From: Escherichia coli
Lineage (GTDB): Bacteria; Pseudomonadota; Gammaproteobacteria; Enterobacterales; Enterobacteriaceae
Reading direction: 5' to 3' (one strand)
Length of the DNA stretch: 64,000 nt
Assembly: GCF_045037415.1 (NCBI RefSeq)
Contig: NZ_CP173438.1
A program made the position numbers and the translations under genes. Below, piece after piece: positions 970-3,638 of this stretch. The notes beneath the pieces are model-generated. The model searched no databases, was not told the DNA's origin, and worked only from the letters and a program-made list of their open reading frames with translations. Each line of letters begins with the position of its first letter. The stretch's first letter is position 1.

Positions 970-1794
970 ATGGATAAACCAAAGGCGTACTGCCGCCTGC
1001 TTCTCCCCTGCTTTCTTTTACTTTCGGCCTGTACCGTTGATATCAGCCAGCCAGACTCATCAGCCACAGCGGTAAATGCCGAGGCGAAAACATGGGCTGT
1101 TAAATTCCAGCATCAAAGCTCTTTCACCGAACAATCAATAAAAGAAATAACGGAACCAGATCTCAAACCCGGCGATTTGCTTTTCTCCTCAAGCCTTGGG
1201 GTAACCTCATTTGGTATCCGCGTATTCAGCACTTCCTCTGTGAGTCACGTTGCAATCTATTTGGGAAATAATAACGTTGCCGAAGCGACAGGCGCTGGCG
1301 TCCAGATTGTTTCCCTTAAAAAAGCCATGAAGCACAGTGATAAGCTTTTCGTCTTACGAGTCCCGGACCTTACCCCGCAACAAGCCACAGAAATCACCGC
1401 GTTCGCCAATAAAATTAAAGATAGCGGTTATAACTATCGCGGCATTGTCGAATTTATTCCATTTATGGTGACTCGCCAGATGTGCTCACTGAATCCGTTC
1501 TCCGAGGATTTTCGCCAACAGTGCGTCAGCGGCCTGGCGAAAGCGCAGTTAAGTAACGTTGGCGAAGGAGACAAAAAGTCGTGGTTTTGTTCGGAATTTG
1601 TCACGGATGCATTTGCCAAAGCCGGGCATCCGCTTACGCTGGCGCAATCAGGCTGGATTAGCCCTGCCGATCTGATGCATATGCGTAGTGGTGATGTCTC
1701 TGCATTTAAACCAGAAACGCAGTTACAGTATATTGGGCACCTGAAGCCAGGGATTTATATTAAAGCAAGTCGCTTTGTTGGACTGACTCAGTGA
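970..1794 (+). CDS. yaeF: putative lipoprotein YaeF (permuted papain-like/NlpC-P60-superfamily protein)
   Basis: ORF track 961..1794 begins at TTG; in-frame ATG at 970 gives MDKPKAY..., 274 aa, with lipobox LLSAC; synteny between proS and nlpE. Confidence 0.85.
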   Translation: MDKPKAYCRLLLPCFLLLSACTVDISQPDSSATAVNAEAKTWAVKFQHQSSFTEQSIKEITEPDLKPGDLLFSSSLGVTSFGIRVFSTSSVSHVAIYLGNNNVAEATGAGVQIVSLKKAMKHSDKLFVLRVPDLTPQQATEITAFANKIKDSGYNYRGIVEFIPFMVTRQMCSLNPFSEDFRQQCVSGLAKAQLSNVGEGDKKSWFCSEFVTDAFAKAGHPLTLAQSGWISPADLMHMRSGDVSAFKPETQLQYIGHLKPGIYIKASRFVGLTQ

Positions 1795-1819
1795 TAAAAG
1801 CCAGCCTCGTGCGCAAAAT

Positions 1820-1853
1820 GCCGGATGCGGCGTGAACGCCTTATCCGGCCTAC
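1820..1853. repeat. REP (repetitive extragenic palindromic) unit
   Basis: gccggatgcggcgtgaacgccttatccggcctac, canonical REP palindrome in the yaeF/nlpE convergent intergenic region. Confidence 0.75.
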
Positions 1854-1890
1854 AAAATCGTGCTAATTCAAAATATTGCATTGTATGCTT

Positions 1891-1918
1891 TAGGCCTGAT
1901 AAGCGCAGCGCATGAGGC
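1891..1918. repeat. REP-like imperfect palindromic unit (second unit of a BIME-like pair)
   Basis: taggcctgataagcgcagcgcatgaggc, imperfect palindrome related to REP consensus. Confidence 0.5.
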
Positions 1919-1949
1919 AATATTTCATTTGTTTCTGCCTCAAGACGGG

Positions 1950-2673: not shown

Positions 2674-3096
2674 TTACTCCCGACCGCTGCGCACTTTGCC
2701 GCGCATCGCCTTCACGCTTGATTTTTGTGCTTTCGATGCCAGCCTGCGCTCTTTCGATGCACGGGTGGGCCGCGTAGGTCTTCGGGCTTTTTGTTCTGTT
2801 GTTAAATCTTTAATCACTGCCACCAGCCGGGCCAGCGCCGCTTCGCGGTTCAGTTCCTGACTGCGGTATTCCTGTGCCTTAATGACAATCACTCCGTCAC
2901 TGCTGATCAAATGATGGCTGGCGGCGAGCAGACGCTCTTTGTAATACTCTGGCAGGCTGGACGCCCGAATGTCAAAACGCAGATGAATAGCCGTTGAGGT
3001 CTTATTAACATGCTGCCCGCCCGCGCCCTGCGCACGAATGGCGGTGATCTCAAACTCGCCATCAGGGATAGCAACATGTCGGGAAATCACAATCAT
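2674..3096 (-). CDS. arfB: alternative ribosome-rescue factor ArfB (peptidyl-tRNA hydrolase, GGQ motif)
   Basis: 140-aa ORF containing [10 protein letters not shown] release-factor-like GGQ motif and basic C-terminal tail; 4-nt overlap with yaeQ. Confidence 0.9.
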
Positions 3097-3638
3097 GAAG
3101 GTTGTTGCCAGACGGTTAAGTTCACTTCCAGATTATTCTTATCATCCGATAACCAGATAACACCATCCTGAATCGTTGCCTGCAGCGTCATGGTACGATC
3201 GGCAAAGGCGCTCACTTTCGCCAGCTGCTCGTCGTCCAGATACCAGACGGAAAGATTGGCAAACTGCGCACATTTGCTCTGATTTTGCTGCCACCAGATT
3301 TGCGCCGCCCGACTATTATAGGCAAACAGCGCCACTTCTGCGGCCTGGGTGCAGGCTTTCTTAATCCGTCGCTCATCCGGCAGCCCCAGCTCAATCCACA
3401 AATCAATACCCAAATGATCGTTACGCAGCCACGCTTCCGGCTCATCATCGGCACACAAACCACGGGTAAATTGCAGACGTTCATCGGCATATTTTAGCCA
3501 CGCCAGCAGGCGCAGCATCATACGCTCCTGGGTTTCTGAAGGATGGCGCGCCAACGTCAGAGAGGCATCGAGAAACTGGTTGCGGTCGAGATCGGCCACA
3601 TTAACCGTCGCTTTATAAATTGTCGCTTTAAGCGCCAT
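3093..3638 (-). CDS. yaeQ: YaeQ family protein
   Basis: 181-aa ORF, synteny upstream of arfB, translational coupling overlap atga. Confidence 0.85.

Follow-up and report, generated by a model that had tools for sequence, protein, structure and literature searches.

BIME-1 elements, non-autonomous repeats for which RIB/RIP is the older name, are the closest described relatives of the repeat that lies between yaeF and nlpE in the Escherichia coli DNA analysed here. A BIME-1 is composed of one y and one z1 REP joined by a long and well-conserved L linker, often carrying an IHF site, and occurs as a single copy (PMC3333891); under the older name the class was described as binding IHF (Boccard & Prentki 1993, as cited in PMC3333891). 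With respect to function, REP325 has been described as acting both as a terminator and as an mRNA stabiliser, REPs located between convergent genes were associated with a higher expression of both genes, and REP effects in general were found to be variable and dependent on context (bioRxiv 10.64898/2026.03.23.713779). REPs also serve as insertion targets: IS1397 is stated to insert into palindromic units (PMC3333891, citing its references 10-12), and the natural target of IS621 is ATCAGGCCTAC (PMC11208160).

The window, i.e. the whole stretch of 64,000 nucleotides that was analysed, carries one such element in the spacer between two convergent genes. Its architecture was compared with that of paralogous BIME-1 copies, of the K-12 reference, of other E. 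coli strains and of related Escherichia species, and the possible roles of the element were weighed against the readings in which it has none.

Organization of the yaeF-nlpE locus

The window begins within proS, whose open reading frame ends at position 917, followed by yaeF (970-1794, plus strand; 825 bp in identical records) and, on the minus strand, by nlpE (1950-2660, with its stop codon at 1950-1952), arfB (2674-3096) and yaeQ (3093-3638), the latter two being oriented as nlpE. All coordinates are those of the open reading frames, and the gene names follow the RefSeq annotation of identical records (matching records for nlpE). As the sequence-only reading had proposed, yaeF and nlpE are convergent with a REP pair between them, and the spacer has the length of 155 bp (1795-1949) that was given for it, with the yaeF stop codon ending at 1794. 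This spacer is almost wholly taken up by one BIME-1: the Y REP starts 25 nt past the 3' end of yaeF, and 31 nt separate the Z1 REP from the nlpE stop codon. Strain 5506 (ST131) has an identical spacer; over the compared region it matches the window at 800 of 801 bases, with the lone difference located within yaeF.

Architecture of the element

By its sequence, the element is a complete BIME-1, made up of an outer motif, a Y REP, a 37-bp L linker, a Z1 REP and a second outer motif. The Y REP (1820-1853) and the Z1 REP (1891-1918) are inverted, tail to tail, and present in a single copy; they are the only REPs in the spacer, and no other close match to the REP tail was found within 2.3 kb. As in the described class, one Y and one Z1 are arranged in this way at the 3' termini of transcription units, the linker between them is long and conserved and has an IHF-type core whose position is fixed, and the outer motifs are common to other copies. 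It departs from the class in its degraded Z1, which shows a stem mismatch at 1914 and TTAG in place of GTAG, and from the paralogous copies in having a shorter left outer motif.

The L linker (1854-1890, unstranded), which joins the two REPs tail to tail, aligns with the linkers of paralogous BIME-1 copies, and sequences similar to it occur at a median of 5 places per E. coli genome. Four of these linker matches were inspected (yfeS-cysM in K-12, msrA-paeA, adjacent to glpD, and yidB-gyrB), and each was found to be part of a Y-L-Z1 arrangement; the BIME-1 of the window aligns with all four of these unrelated loci from just upstream of Y to approximately 23 nt past Z1. The right outer motif (1919-1941, plus strand, AATATTTCATTTGTTTCTGCCTC) is kept beside Z1 at the paralogous loci as A(A/G)TTTTGCGTTTGTCATCAGTCTC, or, in the longer form given by the paralog alignment, as A(A/G)TTTTGCGTTTGT..TC.GTCTC. 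The left outer flank (1804-1819, plus strand) contains GCCTCGTGCGC (1804-1814), which is similar to the head half of a REP and matches GCCAGCGTCG of the K-12 Z2 REP at 9 of 10 positions; this similarity is suggestive, not decisive, and the left flank may be the remnant of a Z2 REP.

An IHF-like core is located within the linker at 1866-1878 (plus strand, ATTCAAAATATTG), with 12 of 13 positions in agreement with the consensus WATCAANNNNTTR. Exact matches to the consensus are absent from the spacer, and this core is its sole match with at most one mismatch, where 0.13 would be expected per 155 bp. In each of the six other L linkers that were examined, the core is found at offset 17-18. Two of these linkers match the consensus exactly; most of the paralogs, like the window, have one mismatch. 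Based on this sequence match, IHF may bind the L linker. At the same locus in strain 357900 (L011, ~1000-1040) the linker is of a different variant, AAAATCGTGCAAAATCAATGGATTGCACAGCTAGC, with an exact IHF consensus, which suggests exchange between BIME-1 copies.

An intact Y and a decaying Z1

The unit at 1820-1853 on the plus strand, which had been called a canonical REP, is an exact match to GCCGGATGCGGCGTGAACGCCTTATCCGGCCTAC at precisely these coordinates, ending in the CTAC tail (1850-1853). It is an intact Y-type REP, with inverted-repeat arms at 1820-1833 and 1836-1849, and is extragenic, since it sits between two stop codons. No chance match to GCCGGATGCGGCGTGAACGCCTTATCCGGCCTAC was obtained in 100 shuffles of the window with up to three mismatches allowed. 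Its hairpin has a predicted energy of -21.3 kcal/mol (z = -4.9 against shuffles), with -19.5 kcal/mol on the opposite strand. REP hairpins with a 5' GTAG tag are the substrate of the TnpA-REP/RAYT enzyme, which recognises and cleaves them, and the Y unit retains a tag of this type (CTAC on the plus strand). A query containing the Y REP has a median of at least 39 places per E. coli genome, with at least 40 matching pieces in 2,937 records, and the Y REP is identical at 34 of 35 positions to the REP query of the Y type that PMC11208160 quotes.

The second unit, a Z1-type REP at 1891-1918 on the minus strand (GCCTCATGCGCTGCGCTTATCAGGCCTA), differs by one mismatch from the intact Z1 of strain W and gave no chance match in shuffles of the window with three mismatches allowed. 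The description of this unit as degenerate holds, its hairpin reaching -6.8 kcal/mol (z = -0.2 against shuffles) versus -13.2 kcal/mol for the intact strain W version. Two changes account for its state: a G at 1914, where the relatives have a C, creates a mismatch in the stem, and a T at 1890 turns the flanking tag from GTAG into TTAG. In an alignment of orthologous and paralogous copies, T1890 and G1914 are confined to alleles of the window type, and both are present in CFT073 and APEC IMT5155. Because the spacer or these changes are common to ST131 5506, CFT073 and APEC IMT5155, which we take to be phylogroup B2 strains, a strain of this phylogroup is the probable source of the window.

In addition to the two REP hairpins, GCCTCGTGCGC (1804-1814) and GCGCATGAGGC (1908-1918) could pair in an 11-bp helix around the linker and the Y REP, one that is present in the fold predicted for the yaeF-sense strand. 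The substitutions A to G at 1813 and C to G at 1914 are specific for the 155-bp allele and both strengthen the helix, the latter also disrupting the Z1 hairpin; this may be a coincidence.

Comparison with E. coli K12

The sequence-only reading had put the spacer of K-12 at about 199 bp and concluded that the composition of the BIME differs between lineages. Both points are borne out: in the RefSeq annotation of MG1655, nlpE (215269-215979) and yaeF (216179-217003) are separated by 199 bp, and an alignment of the two spacers shows that they are different, with Y-L-Z1 in the window versus Z2-Y plus remnants in K-12. The difference of 44 bp is a net value, K-12 having approximately 66 bp more at the yaeF side and 22 bp less at the nlpE side. 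The extra bases at the yaeF side comprise a Y REP reduced to its 3' half, together with a short linker and a Z2-type REP (GTAGGCATGATAAGACGCGCCAGCGTCGCATCAGGC). Missing at the nlpE side are the 22 bases that read ATAAGCGCAGCGCATCAGGCAA in strain W and correspond to most of Z1; of this unit, K-12 retains TGGCCTG alone. It is therefore K-12 that is without the second unit of the window's pair, its Z1 having been removed by the 22-bp deletion.

The K-12 element is thus an atypical BIME, a Z2-Y pair with remnants. It has in common with the window the Y REP (with one substitution), a homologous L linker and right outer motif, and the same junction with nlpE, whereas the two REPs of K-12 form a head-to-head Z2-Y pair and those of the window a Y-Z1 pair.

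Alleles of the spacer in E. coli

The spacer was surveyed in 5,426 complete E. coli genomes. The BIME-1 allele of 154 or 155 bp is present in approximately 2,168 genomes and the 199-bp K-12 form, also found in O157:H7 and BL21, in 1,919, with the reservation that both counts may take in a rare 173-bp form; 551 records of the BIME-1 allele are at least 99% identical to the window. An allele with a 29-bp, REP-free hairpin was found in 522 genomes, and IS1397 is inserted in the Y loop, as in CFT073, in 201 genomes. The remainder, about 616 genomes by subtraction, carries other interruptions, and both of the examples examined have IS621 at the tail of Z1. The number of IS621 insertions at yaeF-nlpE was estimated in this way because the IS621 junction query, which retrieved 1,207 genomes, is not specific for the locus and also picks up IS621 inserted in BIME-1 elements elsewhere whose linkers are similar; in a systematic sample of 40 rows, 5 belonged to the IS621-type class.

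The 29-bp spacer (TGAAAGCCGGAGAATGCTCCGGCTTTCAA) is a perfect hairpin of -20.6 kcal/mol without any REP, laid out as GAAAGCCGGAG AATG CTCCGGCTTTC in strains SCU-102 (L007, 446-474), PS1Phumofeces1 (L008, 445-473) and E69 (L015), and has the appearance of a small bidirectional terminator. As the source of this allele, precise excision from a BIME allele was considered; the two alleles have only some 10 nt in common, next to the yaeF stop codon.

The rare 173-bp allele, found in PCP06021 (L005, 445-617) and 08A21CPO005 (L023, 515-687), combines a left part of the K-12 type (Y remnant plus Z2) with a right part of the strain W type (partial linker plus intact Z1) and has no Y REP. Such a combination implies an earlier and fuller form of the element with Z2, Y and Z1. 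In every allele seen, at least one strong hairpin is located between the two genes: that of Y in the BIME forms, and that of -20.6 kcal/mol in the 29-bp form.

Insertion sequences landing in the spacer

In CFT073 (L009/L018), an IS1397 of approximately 1.43 kb is inserted in the loop of the Y REP and flanked by an AAC target duplication. IS621, a bridge-RNA recombinase element, has entered Z1 at its GTAG|GCC tail in strains 09-00049 and 357900 (L010, L011, L019), the core being AG (CT). Both sites agree with the published target preferences of the two elements. The window itself contains neither IS, and the tail of its Z1, ATCAGGCCTAA, is one base off the natural IS621 target. In both of these IS621-carrying strains, yaeF is annotated as a frameshifted pseudogene.

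Polarity of the changes

Related genomes were scanned with a degenerate pattern for the C-terminus of NlpE, using the contigs of one genome per species. The pattern led to the junction in E. coli E69, which has the 29-bp hairpin allele, and in two other Escherichia records, E. whittamii and Escherichia sp. MOD1-EC7003; three further hits, in MAGs of unrelated organisms, were due to chance, and the scan did not recover Salmonella, E. albertii or E. fergusonii. Both E. whittamii and MOD1-EC7003 carry Y-L-Z1 at the same junctions as the window, with an intact Z1 and a largely intact Y hairpin. The presence of the arrangement at the same junctions in these outgroups, although they are only two, makes it probable that the BIME-1 form predates the K-12 form and the 29-bp form alike. 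In MOD1-EC7003 (L013) a yaeF remnant lies between proS and the BIME, consisting of the start codon and approximately 17 codons, to which the gene's last ~35 nt are fused in another frame; the adjacent BIME-1 is intact.

Proposed function of the element

We estimate at roughly 85% the probability that the spacer contains one BIME-1 copy which acts, as published work on REPs would predict, as a hairpin for the 3' ends of both transcripts and as an IHF site, and that its difference from K-12 results from ordinary turnover. Both convergent transcripts, yaeF and nlpE, would run into the element, where the Y hairpin, at about -20 kcal/mol on either strand, could block 3'-to-5' exonucleases on the two mRNAs and serve as a partial, Rho-assisted terminator for both genes; the L linker, as DNA, could bind IHF. 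A search of positions 1500-2300 for a hairpin followed by a T run was negative on both strands, and with no classical terminator in this region the REP hairpins are its only strong 3' structures. Of the two units, it is probably Y that carries the function in the lineage of the window, as Z1 is no stabler than shuffled sequences and has two lineage-specific substitutions. REPs within ~15 nt of a stop codon have been reported to stall ribosomes; at distances of 25 nt (yaeF) and 31 nt (nlpE) this effect should not apply here.

The dual role of REP325 (naRNA4) in the yjdMN operon is taken as the functional model, by analogy, both systems being built from REP hairpin units. There are also differences: REP325 consists of six repeats in tandem, flanked by genes of the same orientation, whereas the window has a single BIME-1 between convergent genes, and its naRNA4 score in Rfam remains under the threshold. 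The difference between the window type and the K-12 type is best explained by ordinary BIME turnover, through gain of Z2 and small deletions and, elsewhere, through insertion of IS elements at the REPs, and the difference from K-12 signals no new function.

A role for the host is not the only way to read the element. It might instead be selfish or neutral DNA, a decaying REP doublet once mobilised by a REP-associated tyrosine transposase, without host function and tolerated since convergent 3' spacers are permissive. Several observations are in line with this, namely the loss of the stem and of the GTAG tag from Z1, the complete loss of Z1 from K-12, and the high polymorphism of the locus, where the 29-bp hairpin takes the place of the element in 522 genomes, IS1397 interrupts it in 201 and some 600 more are interrupted (by IS621 in the two that were examined). 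With 522 genomes having the 29-bp hairpin instead and about 800 an IS or other interruption, the element is evidently dispensable in nature. However, two other Escherichia species have kept it at the same junctions, its Y hairpin being largely intact, and no allele was seen without a strong hairpin between the genes, so that we consider the absence of any function possible but rather doubtful.

It is far less probable that the spacer encodes a small RNA of the naRNA4 or ES036 type. Rfam matches to both families were obtained, naRNA4 (RF02564) with 41.3 bits at 1780-1850 on the minus strand and ES036 (RF02751) with 25.4 bits over its full length at 1854-1897, but both scores are below the gathering thresholds (59.5 and 37.6, respectively) and reflect common REP and L-linker sequence, not a specific gene, on which grounds this candidate was rejected. 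Moreover, a promoter scan gave two sites, a count within the range of the shuffles, both located in yaeF (1705-1761) and none in the spacer, and the function proposed for naRNA4 has itself been questioned (bioRxiv 10.64898/2026.03.23.713779).

A classical bidirectional intrinsic terminator whose likeness to REPs is accidental would suit the position between convergent genes, the strong GC-rich hairpins and the terminator-like appearance of the 29-bp allele elsewhere, but is highly improbable given that no T run follows the hairpin on either strand and that the sequence is a high-copy repeat (median of at least 39 places per genome) and not specific for this locus.

Implications for genome variation and envelope stress

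The preferred reading, that of a BIME-1 with a putative role at the 3' ends of yaeF and nlpE, gives this locus little weight of its own: strain-to-strain polymorphism of BIMEs is long established, and the spacer is a clean example of a known phenomenon. It illustrates that a large share of the intergenic polymorphism of E. coli stems from BIMEs, which also serve IS1397 and IS621 as landing pads. The series of yaeF-nlpE alleles could be used as a simple lineage marker, and could provide a natural test set for how two convergent genes are tuned by the REP content of their common 3' region.

The product of nlpE senses surfaces and activates the Cpx response to envelope stress. It is conceivable, as a long shot, that the interchangeable 3' modules of the lineages at yaeF-nlpE, namely the 29-bp hairpin, the BIME-1, the atypical BIME and the BIME with an IS, give rise to different steady-state amounts of nlpE mRNA; if this were true, the spacer alleles would add to phylogroup-specific Cpx sensitivity.
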